DNA of 64,000 bases from Blastocatellia bacterium. GTDB lineage: Bacteria; Acidobacteriota; Blastocatellia; UBA7656. The notes below the pieces were generated by a model. The model saw only the letters and a program-made list of their open reading frames with translations. It had not been told where the DNA came from and did no database searches. Shown piece by piece: positions 1,045 to 47,880 of this stretch. Both the position numbers and the translations under genes were made by a program. The first letter of the stretch is position 1, and each line of letters begins with the position of its first letter. The DNA is taken from assembly GCA_045807765.1 (NCBI GenBank), contig JBJMGU010000120.1, forward strand, positions 778-64,777, written 5' to 3'.

Positions 1045-2262
1045 ATGAATAAAGACGAATTGATTTATGATTGGAACGTTGTCGGACGCAAGGAGGCCGC
1101 AGCGCGCCGCGTCGAGCTGAATGACGAATCGTTGCGCGATGGCTTGCAGTCGCCTTCAGTGATTGACCCGCCCATCGAGCAGAAGATCAACCTGCTCCAC
1201 CTGATGGATTCGCTCGGCATTCATAGCGCAGACATCGGGCTGCCGGGCGCCGGGCCGCGCGCCGTCGCCGACGTGACGCGGCTCGCTGAAGAGATCGTCG
1301 CCTGTAAGCTCGACATCCAGCCGAACTGTGCCGCTCGCACAGTGCTTGCCGACATCATTCCCATTGTCGAAATCTCGCAGAAGGTCGGCATCCCCATCGA
1401 AGCCTGCACCTTCATCGGCTCAAGCCCGATTCGCCAATACGCCGAAGGCTGGTCGCTTGAGATGATGCTGACGGCGACCGAAGAGGCGGTGAAGTTTGCA
1501 ACCTCGCACGGGCTGCCGGTGATGTACGTGACCGAAGACACGACGCGGGCGCATCCCGACACCGTGCGCGCGCTCTATCGCACAGCCATCGAAGCGGGAG
1601 CGCGGCGCATCTGCGTCTGCGATACCGTCGGCCACGCCACGCCCGAAGGCGTGCGCGCCTTGATCGCCTACGTCAAAGAGATCGTTCGCGAGGTCGGGCC
1701 GGACTTCGAGATCAAGATAGACTGGCATGGCCACCAGGATCGCGGCCTCGGCGTCATCAACACGCTTGCCGCGTTTGAAGCGGGCGCCGACCGCTTGCAT
1801 GGCACAGCGCTCGGCATTGGCGAGCGCGTCGGCAATACGCCAATGGATCAATTGCTGGTCAACCTCAAGCTGATGGGCTACATCGATAACGACCTGACGA
1901 ACCTGACACGCTACTGCGAAGCGGCGAGCGCGGCCACAGGCGTGCCGATCCCTGTCAGCTACCCTGTCGTGGGCCGCGACGCGTTCCGCACGGCGACGGG
2001 TGTGCATGCGGCAGCGGTCATCAAAGCATTTCGCAAAGGCGACGACTGGCTTGCCGATGCCGTCTATTCGGGCGTGCCGGCGCGCGCCTTTGGTCGCGAG
2101 CAGGAGATTGAAATCGGCCCAATGAGCGGCAAATCGAATGTCATCTTCTGGCTCGAACGCCACGGCATCGAGCCGACCGCAGAGCGCGTCGAGCGTCTCT
2201 TTGGTCGCGCCAAACTGAGTGCCTCGGTGCTAACCACCGACGAAATTATGCAGAGCATCTGA
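1045..2262 (+). CDS. 2-isopropylmalate synthase / homocitrate synthase family (HMGL-like aldolase domain) protein
   Basis: N-terminal LNDESLRDGLQSP motif, later DTVGHATP and HGHQDRGLGVINTLAAFEAGA, typical of the LeuA/NifV/HMGL TIM-barrel. No long LeuA regulatory domain. Confidence 0.75.
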   Translation: MNKDELIYDWNVVGRKEAAARRVELNDESLRDGLQSPSVIDPPIEQKINLLHLMDSLGIHSADIGLPGAGPRAVADVTRLAEEIVACKLDIQPNCAARTVLADIIPIVEISQKVGIPIEACTFIGSSPIRQYAEGWSLEMMLTATEEAVKFATSHGLPVMYVTEDTTRAHPDTVRALYRTAIEAGARRICVCDTVGHATPEGVRALIAYVKEIVREVGPDFEIKIDWHGHQDRGLGVINTLAAFEAGADRLHGTALGIGERVGNTPMDQLLVNLKLMGYIDNDLTNLTRYCEAASAATGVPIPVSYPVVGRDAFRTATGVHAAAVIKAFRKGDDWLADAVYSGVPARAFGREQEIEIGPMSGKSNVIFWLERHGIEPTAERVERLFGRAKLSASVLTTDEIMQSI

Positions 2263-2411
2263 TTGCGGATTGCGGATTTAAGAGAGCGCGCCATTAACAA
2301 CGGACTACAGGTTGATTGGATTCTAATAGACCATCGTGAAAAATTTCATCAAGAGCGACACCCCCGAATCAACGGCGCGGGTTCCAGAATCCGCAACCCG
2401 CAATCCGCAAT
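2262..2411. repeat. Inverted arms made of tandem heptamers (ATTGCGG)n separated by about 110 nt
   Basis: Left arm ATTGCGGATTGCGGATT (2262-2278). Right arm AATCCGCAACCCGCAATCCGCAAT (2388-2411), which is the reverse complement with three units. Confidence 0.7.
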
Positions 2412-3601
2412 CGCGGGCTCTGCTCTACGCGCCGCAGGTGCGCCGCGCCTTCGCTTTCATCGAAGCCAGCGACAGCGAAACCCACGACGAGATGATGCGC
2501 ATCTGCGAAATTCCGGCACCGCCATTCAAAGAGCATGCCCGCGCCGCTTATCTCAAGCGCCGCTTTGAAGAGATCGGCCTCAAGCATGTGCGCACAGACG
2601 CCGAAGGCAATGTGATCGCCGAGCGACCGGGCCGCAGCGCCGCGCCTGCCATCGTCATCGCCGCGCACCTTGATACGGTCTTCCCCGAAGGCACAGACGT
2701 GCGCGTGCGCCGCGACGGCTCACGCTACTACGCGCCCGGCATCAGCGATAACACCTCAGGCGTTGTCAGCTTGATCGCGCTGGCGCGAGCGCTCGAAGCG
2801 GCACAGGTCGCCACCACCGGCACGATCCATTTCGTCGGCACTGTCGGTGAAGAAGGCGAAGGCAACCTGCGCGGCGTGCGTCACCTGTTCACGGCGGGCG
2901 ACTTTCGTGCCGATGTTGAAGCCTTCATCTCGATTGATGGGCCGGGGGTCGAGCGCATCACGACGCGGGCGCTCGGCTCGCGTCGCTATCGCGTGACGGT
3001 CACAGGGCCGGGCGGCCATTCGTGGGGCGACTTCGGCATCGTCAACCCGGTGCATGCGCTGGGCCGCGCGATTGCCCGCTTTGCCGCCTACCCGGCGCCG
3101 ATGGCGCCGCGCACCTCGTTCAACGTCGGCATCATCGAAGGCGGCAACTCGGTCAATTCGATTCCGCAGCGCGCCAGCATGATCGTTGACATGCGCTCGG
3201 TGTCGAGCGAAGAGATCGATAAGCTGGAAGTTTATTTGCGGCGCGTCGTCGAGCTAGGCTTGCGCGAAGAGAATGCGCAGCGGGCGATGAGCGGCACGAT
3301 GCTGGCCGTCGAGCTTGAGCAGATTGGCGACCGGCCTTCGGGCGAAACGCCGGTGAGCGCGCCCATCGTCCAGGCGGCGATTGACTGCTCGCGCGCCTTA
3401 GGCATCGAGCCGCGCCTCGACTGTTCTTCGACCGACTCGAACATCCCCATCTCGATGGGCCTGCCGGCCATCACGGTCGGCGCCGGCGGCCTGTCAAGCA
3501 ACTGCCACACACTCGGCGAATGGTATGAGCCGACGGGCCGCGAGCTTGGCTTAAAGCGACTGCTGCTGCTCACTGTCATGCTCGCCGGGCTGGTGAATTA
3601 A
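2336..3601 (+). CDS. M20-family metallopeptidase (peptidase T / ArgE-DapE-like)
   Basis: IAAHLDTVFPEG, PGISDNTSGVV and GTVGEEGEGNLRGVRHL motifs. The start (GTG 2336) is uncertain because it lies inside the repeat-flanked spacer. Confidence 0.8.
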   Translation: MKNFIKSDTPESTARVPESATRNPQSRALLYAPQVRRAFAFIEASDSETHDEMMRICEIPAPPFKEHARAAYLKRRFEEIGLKHVRTDAEGNVIAERPGRSAAPAIVIAAHLDTVFPEGTDVRVRRDGSRYYAPGISDNTSGVVSLIALARALEAAQVATTGTIHFVGTVGEEGEGNLRGVRHLFTAGDFRADVEAFISIDGPGVERITTRALGSRRYRVTVTGPGGHSWGDFGIVNPVHALGRAIARFAAYPAPMAPRTSFNVGIIEGGNSVNSIPQRASMIVDMRSVSSEEIDKLEVYLRRVVELGLREENAQRAMSGTMLAVELEQIGDRPSGETPVSAPIVQAAIDCSRALGIEPRLDCSSTDSNIPISMGLPAITVGAGGLSSNCHTLGEWYEPTGRELGLKRLLLLTVMLAGLVN

Positions 3602-3623
3602 TTCTGACCTGAACTGTAGACGA

Positions 3624-4178
3624 TCAAGGCTGTGACGACGTCGGTGGCTTATGCGGCGGTTGCTGGGCAGAGGGCTGCGGCGGTGGCGGCTCCTGTGACT
3701 TCGGCGTCTGCGCGGCATTGATGTAGGCAAGAATCTCTTTGCGCACTTCTGCGTAAGGCTTGTCTATCGGGTGGTTGTTGGCGTCGCGCCAGCCCCTGAC
3801 GATGTCGTTAACGATCAGGAACTGGCCGTATTGAAAATTGAGGGTGCGAAAGAGGCTGTCTTCCGGCTCCAGAAAGACGAGCATCTCCTGTTCGTTGGTG
3901 TAACTGTCTTCGGCGCAGCGCACAATCGAGAGCGCCAGGACGTTCAGCTCTTTCAGCGTGAAGTCGCCTTCGATGACATCAACCGGTTGCAGCAGCGCCA
4001 CCTGATTGTACGAGCCGCGATAGTTCGCCTTACTGGTTTTGCGAACTCGGACGCGCCCGATCCATGTGGCGTTGCGCGTCAACTCGTCGGCGGACATGAG
4101 GCGTAAACAATTGCGCGATTGCGCGAATCCTGGGAGCACCAGCAGGGACAGCGCGATAAAGACGATTGCGTTTCTCAT
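3624..4178 (-). CDS. Secreted hypothetical protein with Pro/Gln-rich C-terminus
   Basis: N-terminal signal peptide (MRNAIVFIALSLLVLPGFAQ). C-terminal QEPPPPQPSAQQPPHKPP tail. No recognisable domain. Confidence 0.5.
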   Translation of the reverse strand: MRNAIVFIALSLLVLPGFAQSRNCLRLMSADELTRNATWIGRVRVRKTSKANYRGSYNQVALLQPVDVIEGDFTLKELNVLALSIVRCAEDSYTNEQEMLVFLEPEDSLFRTLNFQYGQFLIVNDIVRGWRDANNHPIDKPYAEVRKEILAYINAAQTPKSQEPPPPQPSAQQPPHKPPTSSQP

Positions 4179-4972: not shown

Positions 4973-6184
4973 TCATTCAGCTTGCGAGCGGCTGCTAATC
5001 TGCGCCTGCGGAAAGTAGAAGCGCAGTATCTCTTCATAGCGCCGCCCGCTGCGCGCCTGCGCCACGGCGCCGGCCAGACACAAGCCGACCTGGCTGCCAA
5101 AGCCACGGCCACGAAAAATCATCTGAGCGCCGCGCCGCGTCACGATGAAGCTGCCGCTCAAGACCACGTTCCAGCCGAGCCGCCGCCCGGTGGCGCGGCG
5201 AAATTCGTCGCCGCTCATCGTCCACTCGCGCCCGCTGTCGCGTATGCTCACGGCGCGCACAAAGCCGGCGTCGTCGCCGTCAACCGCGATCTCTGTGCCC
5301 GGTGAAAGCGGCGCGCCAAGAGCCGCCGCCAGCGCGTTGATAATGGCTCGCGCGTCAATCTGCCGCGCCCAGCGGTAATGGCTCGAAGCGCGGCACCATT
5401 CACAGCGCTGCCGGCGGTAAGGATAAGCACACACGCCGCCCCAGACCATCTGCGGCGTCGCCGTCAGGCCGCCACACGAGGCGCTGAAGTAAGTTTCAAC
5501 CGGCTCGCCCGCAAAGCTCAGATGCTCACCGGCGGTTGCGGCAACGGCACTCAAAACCACGGGGCGCGCGGCTTCAGCAGCCAGATCGCTCTCGCCGCGA
5601 TAGAGCTGGCAGTGCGTCGTGTCACAAAAATCAAAGCCGTCGGCGGTGTGCCGGCTCGGATGCGAAAGCATATAAGTCCGCACGACGATGGCCAGCGCCT
5701 TTAAGGCTTCGGGCGCACGCGCCTCGGTCTCGGCGGCGACGATGGAAGCGACTGCCGCTTCGCGGTCGGTCGTCAGGATGATCTTCAACGCGCCGCGCAG
5801 ACTCTTGTCGCCTGCGGCGATCAATAGGTCGCCGCGCACCGTGCGGCGCAGCTTGCCCGGCAGCGTTAGCTCCAGCGTCGCCTCTGGACCGGCGTGCAGC
5901 CGCGCTTCTGCGGCGTTGAAAGTTTGACGGGTGCCGCCGCGCGCATCGCTTATGGTCACCTGCAACTGCTCGCCAACCAGTTGCAAGCGCACGCGGCTGC
6001 CGGCGCTGAGCTGGCGACTGCCGGTCAGGCGGTTAAGATCAATCGTTGCGCCGTCGCCCGAAACCACCCGCGCTTCGACGACCTGCGGCTTAAACAGGCT
6101 GAACAACCCCATGCGCACGGTCTCGGCGCGCGCATGGGGCGCGGCCAGGATCATCAAGGCAACGGCGGCAAGCAGTCTCGGCAT
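4973..6184 (-). CDS. SpoIID/LytB domain protein
   Basis: Signal peptide, ALKALAIVVRTYMLSH...FDFCDTTHCQLYRG and SASCGGLT motifs characteristic of SpoIID-type lytic transglycosylase/amidase enhancers. Confidence 0.8.
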   Translation of the reverse strand: MPRLLAAVALMILAAPHARAETVRMGLFSLFKPQVVEARVVSGDGATIDLNRLTGSRQLSAGSRVRLQLVGEQLQVTISDARGGTRQTFNAAEARLHAGPEATLELTLPGKLRRTVRGDLLIAAGDKSLRGALKIILTTDREAAVASIVAAETEARAPEALKALAIVVRTYMLSHPSRHTADGFDFCDTTHCQLYRGESDLAAEAARPVVLSAVAATAGEHLSFAGEPVETYFSASCGGLTATPQMVWGGVCAYPYRRQRCEWCRASSHYRWARQIDARAIINALAAALGAPLSPGTEIAVDGDDAGFVRAVSIRDSGREWTMSGDEFRRATGRRLGWNVVLSGSFIVTRRGAQMIFRGRGFGSQVGLCLAGAVAQARSGRRYEEILRFYFPQAQISSRSQAE

Positions 6185-44431: not shown

Positions 44432-44986
44432 CTACGCCGTTTTATCGGCGCGGGCACTTTCCAGGAAGAGGTACTTTCTCCACTCCGGCCTTGATGTCGA
44501 CTCATGGCAGAGGATCGAACGGTCAATACCGTAAGTCAACGCCGCCGGGTTCTTCAGCAGCGGCATGCGCGACTCTTCCGGCGTGCGGTCGCCTTTTCGC
44601 TGATTGCACGCAAAGCATGAAGCCACCAGGTTATCGGCAGATGTCGAGCCGCCGCGAGACGCCGGCAGGATGTGATCGATAGTCAACTCGAACATGCCGC
44701 CGCGCTTGCCGCAGTACTGGCAGCAGAAATGGTCGCGCGCCAGAATCCGCGCGCGCTTGCTTGATGATTTGCGCTGCCTGCCGCGCACGTCGATGTATTC
44801 GATCAAACGAATGACTGACGGCTGCGGAAATTCAAAGCGCAGTGAGCGTAGCATGCGGTCGCCGTCTGCCTCGACCATCTCGGCTGACTCCTTCCAGATC
44901 AGACGCACCGCTCGCGGCACAGCAATCGTCCCCAGCGGTTCGTACGAAGCGTTCAACAGCAATACTTTTCGCGTCAGCAGATTCAT
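44432..44986 (-). CDS. HNH endonuclease (McrA/COG1403-like)
   Basis: CQYCGKRGG...LTIDHILPASRGGSTSADNLVASCFACNQRKGDR (HNH with two CxxC pairs). The ATG lies 7 nt after the encoded CCA of the last array tRNA. Confidence 0.85.
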   Translation of the reverse strand: MNLLTRKVLLLNASYEPLGTIAVPRAVRLIWKESAEMVEADGDRMLRSLRFEFPQPSVIRLIEYIDVRGRQRKSSSKRARILARDHFCCQYCGKRGGMFELTIDHILPASRGGSTSADNLVASCFACNQRKGDRTPEESRMPLLKNPAALTYGIDRSILCHESTSRPEWRKYLFLESARADKTA

Positions 44987-44993
44987 AACGTCC

Positions 44994-45070
44994 TGGAGCC
45001 GATGGAGAGAATTGAACTCACACTCTGCGACTTACGAGGCCGCCGCTTTATCCGTTTAAGCTACATCGGC
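44994..45070 (-). tRNA. tRNA-Thr(CGU), CCA encoded
   Basis: Hand fold: acceptor GCCGATG/CATCGGC, anticodon loop CTCGTAA, T-loop TTCAATT, 3' TCCA. Confidence 0.8.
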
Positions 45071-45073
45071 AAA

Positions 45074-45147
45074 TGCCCGATGGAGGAATCGAACCCCCGC
45101 ATGGCCACTTTGTAAGAGTGGTGCTTTCCCGTCTTAGCTAATCGGGC
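45074..45147 (-). tRNA. tRNA-Val(UAC)
   Basis: Acceptor GCCCGAT/ATCGGGC, anticodon loop CTTACAA, T arm GGGGG-TTCGATT-CCTCC. Confidence 0.8.
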
Positions 45148-45152
45148 AAAAG

Positions 45153-45225
45153 AGCGAGCGACGGGATTCGAACCCGCTCGGTCCAGCTTGGAAGGCTGGC
45201 GCTCATCCACTTGAGCTTCACTCGC
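45153..45225 (-). tRNA. tRNA-Gly(UCC)
   Basis: Acceptor GCGAGTG/CGCTCGC, U73, anticodon loop CTTCCAA, T-loop TTCGAAT. Position 8 is A. Confidence 0.8.
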
Positions 45226-45228
45226 CTG

Positions 45229-45301
45229 AGCCGATGACGGGCCTCGAACCCGCAGCCTGGGCATTACAAGTGCCCTGCACGTCCGCTTGTGCTTCATCGG
45301 C
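45229..45301 (-). tRNA. tRNA-Thr(UGU)
   Basis: Acceptor GCCGATG/CATCGGC (identical to Thr-CGU and Ile-GAU), anticodon loop CTTGTAA. Position 8 is A. Confidence 0.8.
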
Positions 45302-45304
45302 GAA

Positions 45305-45378
45305 TGGGGATAGGAAGAGTCGAACTCCCGGCCTCACCTTTCGGAGAGGTGCGCTCTCTCCGTCTGAGCTATATCCCC
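45305..45378 (-). tRNA. tRNA-Arg(CCG)
   Basis: Acceptor GGGGATA/TATCCCC, anticodon stem CACCT/AGGTG, loop CTCCGAA, T-loop TTCGACT. Confidence 0.8.
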
Positions 45379-45383
45379 GGAAC

Positions 45384-45455
45384 TTAGAATTGCAGCGGGC
45401 ACTTCAAGCAATACCGCTTGCCGTGCGCCTTACAGACTTTCTTATAACGATGCAT
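45384..45455 (-). CDS. 23-aa basic Cys/His microprotein embedded in the tRNA array
   Basis: MHRYKKVCKAHGKRYCLKCPLQF* (not in track). GGAGG at 45465-45469 lies 9 nt upstream of the ATG. It fills the only long (93-nt) spacer, between tRNA-Gln(UUG) and tRNA-Arg(CCG). Confidence 0.5.
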   Translation of the reverse strand: MHRYKKVCKAHGKRYCLKCPLQF

Positions 45456-45471
45456 GGCGATCTACCTCCGA

Positions 45472-45545
45472 CTGCGGGGGCGGGCAACGATTCCGCAACC
45501 TCCACTTTCAAAGAGTGGCGCTCTGCCTGCTTGAGCTACCCCGCA
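45472..45545 (-). tRNA. tRNA-Gln(UUG), irregular T arm
   Basis: Acceptor TGCGGGG/CCCCGCA (U1-A72) with G73, as in bacterial tRNA-Gln. Anticodon loop CTTTGAA. The T arm GCGGA-ATCGTTG-CCCGC lacks the canonical TTCGA loop and the G53-C61 pair. Confidence 0.65.
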
Positions 45546-45549
45546 TCAG

Positions 45550-45622
45550 TGGTTGGGGTGAGGGTCGAACTCACCGCCTCTGGTGCTTCAAACCAGCGCT
45601 CTTCCTGATGAGCTTCCCAACC
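45550..45622 (-). tRNA. tRNA-Phe(GAA)
   Basis: Acceptor GGTTGGG/CCCAACC, anticodon loop TTGAAGC (G37), T arm GTGAG-TTCGACC-CTCAC. Position 8 is A. Confidence 0.75.
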
Positions 45623-45626
45623 ATAA

Positions 45627-45699
45627 AGCTGCCGGCGAGACTCGAACTGGCGCGGATAGGTTCAGGAAACCTGCGCCTCATCCGCTCGGCCACGGCAGC
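45627..45699 (-). tRNA. tRNA-Arg(CCU)
   Basis: Acceptor GCTGCCG/CGGCAGC, anticodon loop TTCCTGA. D arm TGGCCGAGCGGATGAGGC resembles class II D arms. One T-stem mismatch. Confidence 0.7.
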
Positions 45700-45706
45700 A
45701 AAAAAA

Positions 45707-45784
45707 TGGTGGAGAGTATGGGGCTCGAACCCATCCATCGAGTTTGCAGGACTCGCATGCCGCCAACAACACCTTGCCGACCGA
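45707..45784 (-). pseudogene. Degenerate/chimeric tRNA-like unit (Ala-UGC-like 3' half with CCA)
   Basis: Canonical 3' part: T arm ATGGG-TTCGAGC-CCCAT, then ACTCTCC-A-CCA. Anticodon arm CGAGT-CCTGCAA-ACTCG. The 5' end (GGTCGGCAAGGTG...) cannot pair with the 3' acceptor strand. Confidence 0.5.
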
Positions 45785-45857
45785 TGGGCCGCGTGGGAGT
45801 CGAACCCACTACCACCCGATTAAAAGTCGGGTACTCATCCTGATGAGCTTGCGGCCC
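45785..45857 (-). tRNA. tRNA-Lys(UUU)
   Basis: Acceptor GGGCCGC/GCGGCCC, anticodon stem CCCGA/TCGGG, loop CTTTTAA, T arm GTGGG-TTCGACT-CCCAC. Position 8 is A. Confidence 0.8.
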
Positions 45858-45858
45858 G

Positions 45859-45949
45859 TACTCCCGCCGGGACTCGAACCCGGATCACGCACCAATCTAG
45901 TGCTTGCAGGGTATAAGCCTGCTGTTTTATCCAATTAAACTACGGGAGC
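45859..45949 (-). tRNA. Class II (long variable arm) tRNA with anticodon UAU
   Basis: Acceptor GCTCCCG/CGGGAGT, A73. Anticodon stem GCAGG/CCTGC with loop CTTATAC. 22-nt variable arm AAGCACTAGATTGGTGCGTGAT (stem GCAC/GTGC). T arm CCGGG-TTCGAGT-CCCGG. Confidence 0.7.
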
Positions 45950-45953
45950 GCGA

Positions 45954-46025
45954 TGAGCCCGACAGGAATCGAACCTGCTTTTCCGGTTTAAGAGACCGGC
46001 ACTTCGCCAGCAAAGCTTCAGGCCC
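45954..46025 (-). tRNA. tRNA-Lys(CUU)
   Basis: Acceptor GGGCCTG/CGGGCTC (two G-U pairs), anticodon stem CCGGT/ACCGG, loop CTCTTAA. Position 8 is A. Confidence 0.75.
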
Positions 46026-46028
46026 AAA

Positions 46029-46103
46029 TGCTCCCGGCAGGACTCGAACCCGCATCGCCAACCTTAGAAGGGTTGTGCCTTAATCCAGTTAGACCACAGG
46101 AGC
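46029..46103 (-). tRNA. tRNA-Arg(UCU)
   Basis: Acceptor GCTCCTG/CGGGAGC, anticodon stem CAACC/GGTTG, loop CTTCTAA, T-loop TTCGAGT. Confidence 0.8.
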
Positions 46104-46108
46104 AAAAG

Positions 46109-46182
46109 CGAGGTGTAGGGGAGTCGAACCCCTCTCTTCACGATAGACAATCGTGCGCCTCAAGCCGCTCGGCCAACACCTC
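46109..46182 (-). tRNA. tRNA-Asp(GUC)
   Basis: Acceptor GAGGTGT/ACACCTC, G73, anticodon stem CACGA/TCGTG, loop TTGTCTA (pyrimidine at 37). D arm TGGCCGAGCGGCTTGAGGC. Confidence 0.7.
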
Positions 46183-46186
46183 GAAA

Positions 46187-46259
46187 TGCCGATGTCAGGA
46201 TTCGAACCTGCATCGCGCGGTTATCAACCGCGTGCTCTGCCTGCTTGAGCTACATCGGC
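46187..46259 (-). tRNA. tRNA-Ile(GAU)
   Basis: Acceptor GCCGATG/CATCGGC, anticodon stem CGCGG/CCGCG, loop TTGATAA. D arm GCTCAAGCAGGCAGAGC is identical to that of Gln(UUG). Confidence 0.75.
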
Positions 46260-46260
46260 A

Positions 46261-46337
46261 TGGCTCCGGGACAAGGATTTGAACCTTGAATCTCCTGAGT
46301 CAGAGTCAGGCGCGATAGCCAGTTTCGCCCTCCCGGA
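46261..46337 (-). tRNA. tRNA-Gln(CUG), CCA encoded
   Basis: Acceptor TCCGGGA/TCCCGGA (U1-A72), G73-CCA, anticodon loop CTCTGAC, T arm CAAGG-TTCAAAT-CCTTG. Position 8 is G. Confidence 0.75.
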
Positions 46338-46342
46338 ACACG

Positions 46343-46417
46343 TACGGGCGGTTGGAGTCGAACCAACGATCTCCTGATCCACAATCAGGCGCTCTTGACC
46401 ATCTGAGCTACGCCCGC
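46343..46417 (-). tRNA. tRNA-His(GUG), without encoded G-1:C73
   Basis: Acceptor GCGGGCG/CGCCCGT, anticodon loop TTGTGGA, T arm GTTGG-TTCGACT-CCAAC. Position 73 is A and the base 5' of G1 is U. Confidence 0.75.
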
Positions 46418-46422
46418 ACAAG

Positions 46423-46495
46423 CAGGGATGGCGAGACTCGAACTCGCTAAAACTGGTTTGAAAAACCAGGCGCTCGGCCCTTTGCATTCATCCCC
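46423..46495 (-). tRNA. tRNA-Glu(UUC)
   Basis: Acceptor GGGGATG/CATCCCT, G73, anticodon stem CTGGT/ACCAG, loop TTTTCAA. The D loop contains AGGGCC as in Glu tRNAs. Position 8 is A. Confidence 0.75.
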
Positions 46496-46515
46496 ATTAA
46501 AGCCAAAGATCACCA

Positions 46516-46589
46516 TGCGCGAGGGGAGAGTCGAACTCCCAAGACTTCGGGTTTAAGCCGAAGATGTCTGCCGCTTGCATCACTCGCGC
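46516..46589 (-). tRNA. tRNA with Leu anticodon UAA but class I (short variable loop) architecture
   Basis: Acceptor GCGCGAG/CTCGCGC, A73, anticodon stem TTCGG/CCGAA, loop CTTAAAC, 5-nt variable loop. D arm TGATGCAAGCGGCAGACATC. Confidence 0.7.
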
Positions 46590-46594
46590 AAGAT

Positions 46595-46670
46595 TGGTGG
46601 CAGGGCCGGAGTCGCACCGGTGATTTCCTGGTTATGAGCCAGGCGAGCCTGATTCCTGCTCCACCCCTGC
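46595..46670 (-). tRNA. tRNA-Met(CAU)-like, CCA encoded, irregular T arm/acceptor register
   Basis: D arm GAGC/GCTC, anticodon stem CCTGG/CCAGG, loop CTCATAA. T-loop TGCGACT (G at 55). The acceptor pairs only as GCAGGG/CCCTGC, consistent with a 1-nt loss. Confidence 0.55.
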
Positions 46671-46675
46671 ATCAG

Positions 46676-46748
46676 AGCGCGCGGTCAGACTCGAACTGAC
46701 ACGTTAGCGGTTTTGCAGACCGCCGCCTTCCCTTTTGGCTACGCGCGC
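46676..46748 (-). tRNA. tRNA-Cys(GCA)
   Basis: Acceptor GCGCGCG/CGCGCGC, U73, anticodon stem GCGGT/ACCGC, loop CTGCAAA, T arm GTCAG-TTCGAGT-CTGAC. Confidence 0.8.
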
Positions 46749-46754
46749 GAAAAG

Positions 46755-46825
46755 AGCTTCGTATGGGACTCGAACCCATGTCTGCGACCTGGCAAGCCGC
46801 CGTCTTTCCTCTGGACCAACGAAGC
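46755..46825 (-). tRNA. tRNA-Gly(GCC)
   Basis: Acceptor GCTTCGT/ACGAAGC, U73, anticodon loop TTGCCAG, T arm ATGGG-TTCGAGT-CCCAT. Confidence 0.8.
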
Positions 46826-46829
46826 CGTA

Positions 46830-46903
46830 TGGGAGCAAAGAGATTCGAACTCTTATGACCGGCATTTTGAGCGCCGGATGTCTACCACTTGCATCATGCT
46901 CCC
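46830..46903 (-). tRNA. tRNA with Leu anticodon CAA, class I architecture
   Basis: Acceptor GGGAGCA/TGCTCCC, A73, anticodon loop CTCAAAA, 5-nt variable loop. D arm TGATGCAAGTGGTAGACATC. Confidence 0.7.
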
Positions 46904-46907
46904 GCAG

Positions 46908-46981
46908 TGCGGACGGAGAGATTCGAACTCTCAAAACGTCGCCTCTGAAACGACGATGTCTGCCGCTTGCATCACGTCCGC
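46908..46981 (-). tRNA. tRNA with Leu anticodon CAG, class I architecture
   Basis: Acceptor GCGGACG/CGTCCGC, A73, anticodon loop TTCAGAG, 5-nt variable loop. D arm TGATGCAAGCGGCAGACATC. Confidence 0.7.
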
Positions 46982-47077
46982 AGCAGTGTGGGCGACCGGA
47001 GTCGAACCCACAACGGATTGGTTACCGCTACTTGTTTTCAAGACAAGCTGACATTCCAGCATCTACTCTTCCACGAA
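46982..47077 (-). pseudogene. Degenerate class II tRNA-Ser(UGA)-like unit
   Basis: Good anticodon arm CTTGT-CTTGAAA-ACAAG and variable arm AGCGG/CCGTT. The T region reads GTGGG-TTCGACT-CCGGTCG-CCCAC (7 extra nt). The 5' GGAAGAG has no complementary 3' strand. Confidence 0.45.
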
Positions 47078-47161
47078 CGGAGATGAGAGGAGTCGAACCT
47101 CCACGGGATATTTCACCCGGCGGCTTAGCAAACCGCTGCCATACCTTTAGGCGACATCTCC
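47078..47161 (-). tRNA. tRNA-Ser(GCU), class II
   Basis: Acceptor GGAGATG/CATCTCC, G73, anticodon loop TTGCTAA, long variable arm CGGGTGAAATATCCCGT, T arm GGAGG-TTCGACT-CCTCT. Confidence 0.8.
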
Positions 47162-47167
47162 ACAAGG

Positions 47168-47237
47168 CAGGAGTGACAGGAATCGAACCTGTTCTGCTGG
47201 TTTTGGAGACCAGTTGGCTGCCTTAGCTCTCACTCCC
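47168..47237 (-). tRNA. tRNA-Trp(CCA), irregular D region
   Basis: Acceptor GGGAGTG/CACTCCT (G1-U72), G73, anticodon stem CTGGT/ACCAG, loop CTCCAAA, T arm ACAGG-TTCGATT-CCTGT. The D stem is only 3 bp (GCT/AGC) with extra linker nucleotides. Confidence 0.65.
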
Positions 47238-47242
47238 AAGCA

Positions 47243-47328
47243 TGCCGGCGGGAGGACTCGAACCTCCGAAGTCCACAAAGGGACGCCTGTTCTACAGACA
47301 GGAGCGATTGCCGCTACGCGACGCCGGC
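47243..47328 (-). tRNA. tRNA-Tyr(GUA), class II (first gene of array)
   Basis: Acceptor GCCGGCG/CGCCGGC, A73, anticodon stem CCTGT/ACAGG, loop CTGTAGA, long variable arm with GTCC/GGAC stem, T arm GGAGG-TTCGAGT-CCTCC. Confidence 0.8.
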
Positions 47329-47880
47329 GTACGGACAACTTATTGTCAAAGAGCGCAGCATGGCGGCTTCAGCCATCGGCCATCGCTCCTTGATCTCTAG
47401 CTTTTGTGGATTGCTTGGGATTTCGGGAGCGAGAGGACGCTCCCGCTACGATTAGTTCAGACTACCCAAATCTATAAAGCGCCCTTGCAGGACGACCGTC
47501 GATTCGAGCATCCGATTAGACGTATAGACACACGTCGGCTGGTTCGCCGTGCGTGGGTGCCATTTTGTGGATAACCGTCTAATCATTTGAACTACCTTAA
47601 CCTCGTAGCCAGTTTGCCGGAAGCTAAATCCGGCACCGCTCATTGTAGGCCATACGGCAGACCAGATCAATAAGTTCTTCTCACTTCACTTTTTTTTCGT
47701 TTGCGACTGCCAATCCCAGCGCGATGCCGATCAACGCCATGCGAATCCCCTGTTGCACTACCAGAGTCCGACCCGTCGGCTCAACTTTGCAAGCCGGTCG
47801 GACGCGTAGTAAATTGTTGTCGTCTTGCGGCCCCGAAAGTTGACCGTCTTTTAAATTCATTTGTGAAGGAAAAACGCGTT

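Follow-up and report, generated by a model that had tools for sequence, protein, structure and literature searches.

A candidate orphan micro-gene between two tRNA genes of a mobile tRNA array in a Blastocatellia bacterium

The window analyzed here is a 64,000-nucleotide (nt) stretch of contig JBJMGU010000120.1 and comes from a Blastocatellia-like soil metagenome-assembled genome (MAG) of 6.1 Mb in 280 contigs. Its minus strand carries a compact array of tRNA genes followed by an HNH endonuclease gene, and the subject of this study is the spacer between tRNA-Gln(UUG) and tRNA-Arg(CCG) in this array (Table 1). Read on the minus strand, the spacer (45379-45471) has the form T-C-GGAGG-TAGATCGCC-ATG...TAA-GTTCC. 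Two bases (45471-45470) lie between the 3' end of tRNA-Gln(UUG) at 45472 and the Shine-Dalgarno (SD) motif GGAGG, and five (45383-45379) separate TAA from the 5' end of tRNA-Arg(CCG) at 45378. The SD, the ATG, the open reading frame (ORF) and the stop codon take up 86 of the 93 nt. The encoded peptide, MHRYKKVCKAHGKRYCLKCPLQF, has 23 residues with five lysines, two arginines and no acidic side chain, and its cysteines and histidine follow the pattern C8-x2-H11-x4-C16-x2-C19. The original prediction of a microprotein gene at this position had specified the GGAGG, the 9-nt linker, the ATG, 23 codons and TAA in a 93-nt gap, the start of the GGAGG at the third base after tRNA-Gln(UUG), the stop 5 nt before tRNA-Arg(CCG) and a very basic product with a C-x2-H-x4-C-x2-C motif; each of these details agrees with the coordinates and composition found here. 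It had also described the gap as the only long spacer in the array, which holds in a narrower form. ARAGORN leaves three gaps of 85-97 nt, and the 93-nt gap is the only spacer without a tRNA-like unit, because Rfam places such units in the other two.

The layout of the spacer is better than chance would produce. Among 100,000 dinucleotide-shuffled versions, a GGAGG followed after 5-10 nt by an ATG and a closed ORF of 20 or more codons appeared at a rate of 3e-5, and a relaxed layout that accepts any four-base SD core and ATG, GTG or TTG gave 2e-3. The GGAGG motif is a used SD in this organism, because 64% of the 761 GGAGG-N5-10-ATG sites genome-wide open ORFs of at least 100 amino acids compared to 23% of all ATGs. 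The SD-start spacing in the window is one that is functional elsewhere in the genome: when exactly 9 nt separate GGAGG and ATG, 67 of 123 genome sites open ORFs of this length.

Table 1 Coordinates of the spacer, its array and genes embedded in a related phage contig. Positions refer to the window except where contig L030 is named.
Feature	Position	Strand	Remarks
Inter-tRNA spacer, 93 nt	45379..45471	-	about 82 nt are an insertion relative to related arrays
Shine-Dalgarno GGAGG	45465..45469	-	invariant in every haplotype covering GGAGG
SD-to-ATG linker, 9 nt	45456..45464	-	hypervariable sequence, constant length
23-codon ORF and TAA	45384..45455	-	translation MHRYKKVCKAHGKRYCLKCPLQF; ATG at 45455, TAA at 45386-45384
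tRNA-Gln(UUG), upstream neighbor	45472..45545	-	Rfam 49 bits; no encoded CCA (gene ends ...GCAG, followed by TCGG)
tRNA-Arg(CCG), downstream neighbor	45305..45378	-	ARAGORN and Rfam; ACG anticodon in all other haplotypes
Gln(UUG)-ORF-Arg-Thr(UGU) block	45228..45545	-	no close counterpart in 160 related loci
tRNA array	44994..47328	-	26 ARAGORN tRNAs, 1 Rfam tRNA and 1 weak tRNA-like unit
Rfam tRNA in ARAGORN gap	46423-46495		42 bits; 85-86% identical to tRNA-Glu(UUC) of related arrays
Weak tRNA-like unit in ARAGORN gap	45710-45778		Rfam 21 bits
HNH endonuclease gene	44432..44986	-	Pfam HNH_5 and HNH; directly after last array tRNA
L030 truncated class-I release-factor-like protein	2070-2642		RF-1 and PCRF domains
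L030 CxxCxxCC metal-chelating-domain protein	3221-3655
L030 second small HNH	5218-5508

Additional copies of the spacer and its peptide were found in a metagenome contig (L112), a JGI contig (L199) and Logan contigs from about 15 sequencing runs on soil or rhizosphere, spread over many studies. The L112 HNH protein has 93% amino-acid identity to that of the window, and L199 was reached by searching with a spurious 124-amino acid plus-strand ORF as the handle. All copies are at least 93% identical and constitute a narrow clade. The GGAGG, ATG, TAA, reading frame and residues C8, H11, C16 and C19 are invariant across about 17 contig observations, with no indel, frameshift or stop. Variation is concentrated in the linker, where five of nine positions differ (45463, 45462, 45459, 45457 and 45456), compared to six of the 72 ORF positions (synonymous changes in H2 and R3, a two-nucleotide Y4G change, K9Q and Y15H; Fisher p = 0.0017). 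A linker of invariant length and variable sequence is the pattern expected of the region between an SD and its start codon.

The window and L112 were compared region by region. The ORF differs at 4 of 72 positions versus 16 of 90 four-fold degenerate sites (17.8%) in the HNH gene (p = 0.029), and the whole spacer differs at 6 of 93 positions against the 17.8% expected (p = 0.0014). The five downstream tRNAs have 1-4 differences per ~75 nt and the inter-tRNA linkers have none in 17 positions. Divergence of the peptide (2 of 23 residues) is similar to that of the HNH protein (13 of 184). Judged from these alignments, the ORF segment evolves about as slowly as functional tRNAs and only the linker behaves neutrally.

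Sequence from an RNA run also covers the spacer. A soil metatranscriptome (X13) contains all sampled words of the spacer, and a 201-nt Logan contig from this run spans 45377-45578, taking in tRNA-Gln, the complete spacer and a portion of tRNA-Phe. Relative to the window, this contig has an unchanged ORF and two changes in the linker. The run contains no other substantial piece of the 3.4-kb region formed by the array and the HNH gene, and the downstream end of the contig falls 2 nt inside tRNA-Arg, beside the predicted RNase P site. The position of this end is suggestive of a processed precursor.

A translated mini-cistron is the most economical reading of the spacer because of the SD-spacer-ATG layout, and a functional element is favored because free variation is confined to the SD-ATG linker and the remainder evolves slowly. 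We tentatively propose that the spacer is a young, lineage-restricted orphan mini-cistron that is predicted to be translated, and give this proposal slightly less than an even chance. The interpretation attached to the original prediction finds partial support.

Several results weigh against a translated mini-cistron, beginning with the substitutions themselves. Two synonymous changes at 13 sites and four non-synonymous changes at 56 sites correspond to a ratio of non-synonymous to synonymous rates (pN/pS) of ~0.46, and there is no coding signature because the two counts do not differ significantly (p = 0.31); the comparison itself has no power to reveal selection on the protein. Only 1 of 24 third codon positions changed between the window and L112 versus 16.8% in the HNH gene (p = 0.07), and under-diverged third positions would also fit constraint at the RNA or DNA level. 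The low diversity may reflect recent spread instead of constraint. The HNH gene used for scale may not share the history of the spacer, because the array is mosaic and recombinogenic. Genome-wide, 65 GGAGG-led ORFs of 15-29 codons were observed versus ~52 expected, and because this enrichment is slight a short ORF is not shown to be real by the motif on its own. The RNA evidence consists of a single low-depth Logan contig for which DNA carry-over is possible.

The comparative searches point in the same direction. Related arrays were retrieved with the HNH gene as the handle, which yielded more than 400 relatives. The original prediction was tied to conservation of the reading frame in related arrays, and such conservation was not seen: at 34 related junctions between Gln(UUG) and Arg tRNAs the spacer is missing, and no homologue was found in the sets searched. 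Searches for the peptide or spacer gave only noise in 60 relatives, 400 genomes of the phylum and 400 genomes of the class, and no peptide homologue outside the clade of copies at least 93% identical was present in 162 related loci. There was no match to phage genomes by blastn or tblastn, and none to IMG/VR viral contigs using degenerate patterns and a Gln T-arm pattern. Pfam and NCBIfam returned no match to the peptide at E ≤ 10, and no recurrent family of Cys-rich small ORFs was detected in 564 other array spacers. The peptide and spacer are single copy in their own genome, and a six-frame scan of 1.2 Mb of related loci for the C-x2-H-x4-C-x2-C motif recovered only L112.

Known RNA and peptide classes were compared to the spacer and set aside. 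The minimum free energy of the spacer (-24.5 kcal/mol) is indistinguishable from shuffled sequences (-23.4 ± 3.1 kcal/mol; z = -0.34), and a structured RNA was rejected on this basis. No Rfam family was assigned, the spacer alone giving only a meaningless miRNA match at E ≤ 10. An internal promoter or terminator was rejected because the spacer contains no site resembling either, and an attenuator leader peptide was rejected on the lack of a terminator-like site, the placement of the stop 5 nt before the tRNA and the non-significant fold. The peptide shares with the CCHC zinc knuckle (PF00098) and ribosomal protein bL36 (PF00444) a short, basic sequence with four Cys/His ligand candidates within 12-25 residues. 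The ligand spacing differs: C-x2-H-x4-C-x2-C in the peptide, C-x2-C-x4-H-x4-C in the knuckle and C-x2-C-x12-C-x4-H in bL36. The knuckle was discarded on this motif and the absence of a profile match at E ≤ 10. For bL36, a protein of ~38 residues compared to 23 here, the different Cys spacing and the absence of a Pfam or NCBIfam match at the same threshold bear out the original prediction, which had already separated the peptide from this family.

The nucleotide-level conservation, which extends to third codon positions (1 of 24 changed between the window and L112), is also compatible with a functional non-coding RNA or DNA element. Such an element could be a processed internal transcribed spacer of the 3'ETS-leuZ kind or a processing or recognition site, and the ORF would be incidental. 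The obligatory flanking RNase Z/E and RNase P cuts would liberate the spacer, and the X13 RNA-run contig covers it. This explanation has to do without a significant fold (z = -0.34), an Rfam match, a promoter or a terminator. It leaves unexplained why an SD, a well-spaced ATG and an open frame fill the insert (3e-5 to 2e-3), and why exactly the SD-ATG linker is the part free to vary. We consider a non-coding element improbable.

A chance ORF in a junk insertion is a second explanation that dispenses with selection on a peptide. In this case filler DNA would have entered by illegitimate recombination at a block junction and the copies would reflect recent spread. About 50 GGAGG-led ORFs of 15-29 codons are expected by chance in the genome, pN/pS is not different from 1, and an unrelated 87-nt insertion at the same junction in another array (L136) shows that the site accepts junk. 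The per-spacer probability of the layout (3e-5 to 2e-3), the uneven variation between linker (5/9) and ORF (6/72; p = 0.0017) and a divergence below the neighboring neutral rate (p = 0.0014) all argue against it, and a chance ORF is very unlikely.

The origin of the spacer was traced by alignment to related arrays. The 162 related loci contain 84 Gln(UUG) genes, and in 34 of these an Arg tRNA follows within 1-13 nt (24 UCG, 7 ACG, 2 GCG and 1 UCU). A MAFFT alignment of 30 Gln-Arg junctions places an insertion of ~82 nt in the window immediately after tRNA-Gln, and the last ORF codons and the TAA are collinear with the short AT-rich linker that precedes the Arg tRNA in the relatives. In L136 (589-675), the Gln(UUG)-Arg junction holds an unrelated, GC-rich inverted-repeat (hairpin) insertion of 87 nt with no tRNA and no ORF; the junction therefore accepts insertions repeatedly. 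The best identities of the Thr(UGU), Arg and Gln(UUG) genes that surround the ORF are at most 0.77 and are to non-cognate tRNAs, whereas identities of 84-99% to L032, L113 or other related arrays are found for most of the remaining tRNAs. By these identities the array is mosaic. The ORF probably arrived by recombination within a foreign Gln-ORF-Arg-Thr block from an unsampled donor array or phage, because the block has no close counterpart in related loci and the other tRNAs match well. The donor was not found among class genomes, phage genomes or in IMG/VR pattern searches.

The collinear 3' end of the ORF is also compatible with a gene stump. In this explanation a phage-type array gene was mostly deleted, leaving its SD, ATG and ~21 N-terminal codons fused to a pre-Arg linker that supplies the TAA; the remnant may be translated, would be functionless and would not yet have decayed. 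Related arrays range from loose ones with interspersed ORFs (L030, L033 and L114) to compact ones, which therefore points to repeated deletion, and L030, a contig of phage origin, encodes several small Cys-rich proteins between its tRNAs. The conserved linker of relatives aligns with the final codons and the stop, the substitutions have no coding signature and the ORF is limited to a narrow, young clade. In none of the searched sets is there a longer protein that begins with this N-terminus, and the ORF is as slow as the flanking tRNAs and slower than the HNH four-fold sites and the linker; neutral decay predicts otherwise. The ~17 copies without an indel or stop also speak against decay. A stump is unlikely on balance, and it is an explanation to be taken seriously.

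The size of the slot also allows for a decayed tRNA. A tRNA-Arg(UCG) between Gln(UUG) and Arg(ACG) could have degenerated so that 'GGAGG-TA-G' preserves an old acceptor stem and, after it, U8, A9 and G10. The Arg(UCG) slot in 24 related arrays measures 1-3 + 74 + 11 nt, or ~88 nt, compared to 93 nt here; the 5' end of the spacer, CGGAGGTAGATC, looks like a tRNA 5' end by eye; and the array has another degenerate unit at 45710-45778. The spacer alone has no match to the tRNA model (RF00005) at E ≤ 10, its best Smith-Waterman score against 2401 array tRNAs is 23 when shuffles reach 21-27, and MAFFT does not align it to Arg(UCG). Neither a complementary 3' acceptor strand nor a cloverleaf remnant is present, and a decayed tRNA is extremely improbable.

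The proposed mini-cistron suggests the following sequence of events. An insertion of ~82 nt, seen in the alignments, brought a strong SD, an ATG and 21-22 codons and closes on a TAA in the old pre-Arg linker, and the block around it probably recombined into a mobile, HNH-linked, phage-derived L-type tRNA array. The ORF would be transcribed as part of the array precursor and translated either from this precursor or from a fragment of 93 nt. Because CCA is not encoded in tRNA-Gln, the predicted cut after its discriminator would be made by RNase Z or RNase E, with RNase P cleaving at the 5' end of tRNA-Arg. Release of the spacer by RNase P and RNase Z is plausible, given the lack of an encoded CCA in tRNA-Gln and the end of the RNA contig 2 nt from the RNase P site. 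The RNA so released would measure 93 nt, with 16 nt ahead of the ATG and 5 nt beyond the stop. Ribosomes might instead load on the precursor, with a footprint that covers both processing sites. Translation would yield a strongly basic Cys3His peptide of 23 residues. We speculate that this peptide binds metal, interacts with nucleic acid or the ribosome and is produced alongside the tRNAs of the array. Binding to zinc, RNA or the ribosome is a guess from composition and Cys/His spacing alone, and this spacing matches no known family.

A more elaborate version of the mini-cistron proposal treats the spacer as a case of tRNA punctuation in a bacterium or phage. RNase Z/E and RNase P would excise a 93-nt mini-mRNA for a 23-residue basic Cys3His metal-binding peptide that acts on the ribosome, on tRNAs or on tRNA-targeting host defense upon induction of the array. 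Translation would be coupled to maturation of the Gln and Arg tRNAs, because ribosome occupancy would overlap both processing sites. As a complete scheme this is doubtful, and we would not expect it to hold in full.

The arrangement has partial parallels in known systems. The array resembles L-arrays in having more than 20 tRNA genes, horizontal spread, an HNH homing-type endonuclease, insertions and deletions, and mosaicism (PMC8421152, PMC4758250). L-arrays also have protein genes between their tRNAs that are co-expressed with them. Embedded protein genes are carried by cyanobacterial L-arrays, and the Anabaena sp. PCC 7120 trn operon with the HNH gene all8564 is an example of protein genes embedded in or linked to an L-array (PMC8421152); a survey of tRNA arrays is available (PMC4758250). 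The embedded genes in those arrays are of ordinary size with recognizable domains (RtcB, Dps, HNH and others), unlike the 23-codon orphan ORF described here. A limited literature search did not find a description of an orphan mini-ORF that exactly fills one tRNA-tRNA spacer.

Protein genes are also joined to tRNAs in Escherichia coli, where the tyrT operon has the distal gene tpr for a 'protamine-like protein' of obscure function and tufB belongs to the thrU-tyrU-glyT-thrT operon. As proposed for the window, a gene for a small basic peptide or a protein is co-transcribed downstream of tRNAs and separated from them by tRNA processing. The tpr gene differs in lying after the last tRNA in a repeat region, and it has no sequence similarity to the window peptide. 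The tRNA punctuation model of animal mitochondrial transcripts, which reportedly goes back to Ojala et al. in 1981, provides the parallel of an mRNA bounded on both sides by tRNA excision through RNase P and RNase Z. That system is organellar and leaderless and its stop codons are completed by polyadenylation, whereas the putative window cistron has a bacterial SD and its own stop, and its processing is inferred. A further parallel is the 3'ETS-leuZ sponge of E. coli, a regulatory RNA from a tRNA-precursor spacer said to have been described by Lalaouna et al. in 2015, in which a spacer excised during tRNA maturation gains its own function. RNAs of this type are non-coding and act by base pairing, whereas the window spacer has a full initiation layout and no predicted stable structure.

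Accessory tRNA arrays are commonly regarded as pure tRNA cargo plus a few ordinary passenger genes, and the spacer is a candidate orphan, clade-restricted micro-gene in a known kind of mobile tRNA array. If it is translated, bacterial and phage arrays can hide coding capacity below annotation thresholds, and the spacer would show in a natural bacterial setting how tRNA excision can define an mRNA. It would also be a very young orphan gene with a datable acquisition and known flanks, suited to the study of how mini-genes originate and persist. If the ORF is a stump or junk, it cautions that a perfect SD and ORF in a tRNA spacer do not prove a gene.

The wider context identifies the array as an HNH-linked, horizontally acquired L-type array. 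L-arrays are defined by at least 20 tRNA genes, at least 2 per kb and a horizontal distribution (PMC4758250, PMC8421152), and long tRNA arrays are characterized by horizontal spread, an HNH link, frequent insertions and deletions and embedded protein genes (PMC8421152; PMC4758250). The window array has 27-28 units in 2.3 kb, a linked HNH gene and a horizontal distribution. It is surrounded by chromosomal genes for a TonB-dependent receptor, an AmiE/NamZ fusion, an SSF symporter and a BadF-type kinase, and was not found in 60 relatives examined, including members of the same genus. HNH homologues that follow an array of the same tRNA order are common among MAGs of Blastocatellia and other Acidobacteriota and in soil metagenomes, and a homologous array is present in one IMG/VR phage contig (L030). 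The sole sigma-70-like promoter match in the region, TTGATC-17-TACAAT at 47642-47670 on the minus strand, lies ~310 nt upstream of the first array tRNA. It is a candidate array promoter, and the match count is no better than that in shuffles.

Genuine protein genes do lie between the tRNAs in this family of arrays. Four related loci have a protein gene just downstream of tRNA-Gln(UUG) (L074:2163-2303, L075:993-1133, L079:2504-2668 and L081:2377-2541). The aligned part is a C-terminal segment of 47-55 amino acids with the true start upstream, and its substitutions by codon position (2/1/13 and 10/4/23) are biased to the third position. The phage contig L030 (1-6000) holds a loose array with protein genes (Table 1) and several Cys-rich small ORFs between the tRNAs. 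None of the embedded genes of these five loci resembles the 23-residue peptide. Two diverged arrays have SD-led hydrophobic ORFs of 34 codons between tRNA-Cys and tRNA-Glu (L153:2938-3042 and L056:2626-2730). They are equal in length and similar in character, with no significant similarity by tblastn, and may encode small membrane peptides. Among the 564 intra-array gaps of 45-450 nt in related loci L030-L191, 188 are 80-99 nt long, and most of these are probably non-canonical tRNAs missed by ARAGORN, as is the unit at 46423-46495 in the window.

Two further differences among the haplotypes concern the tRNA genes. At 45344, in the anticodon of the tRNA-Arg downstream of the spacer, L112, L199 and all soil-run contigs spanning the position read ACG through a plus-strand G>T change. 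The window genome carries a one-base anticodon switch from an inosine-type Arg tRNA to a CGG reader, because all of these contigs have ACG. A high-depth soil contig of the same array type from run X12 has 552 extra bases at the tRNA-Tyr end (window 47302-47307), and several of its segments, among them 45527-45626 and 45702-45861, are replaced. This contig is further evidence of rapid array remodeling.

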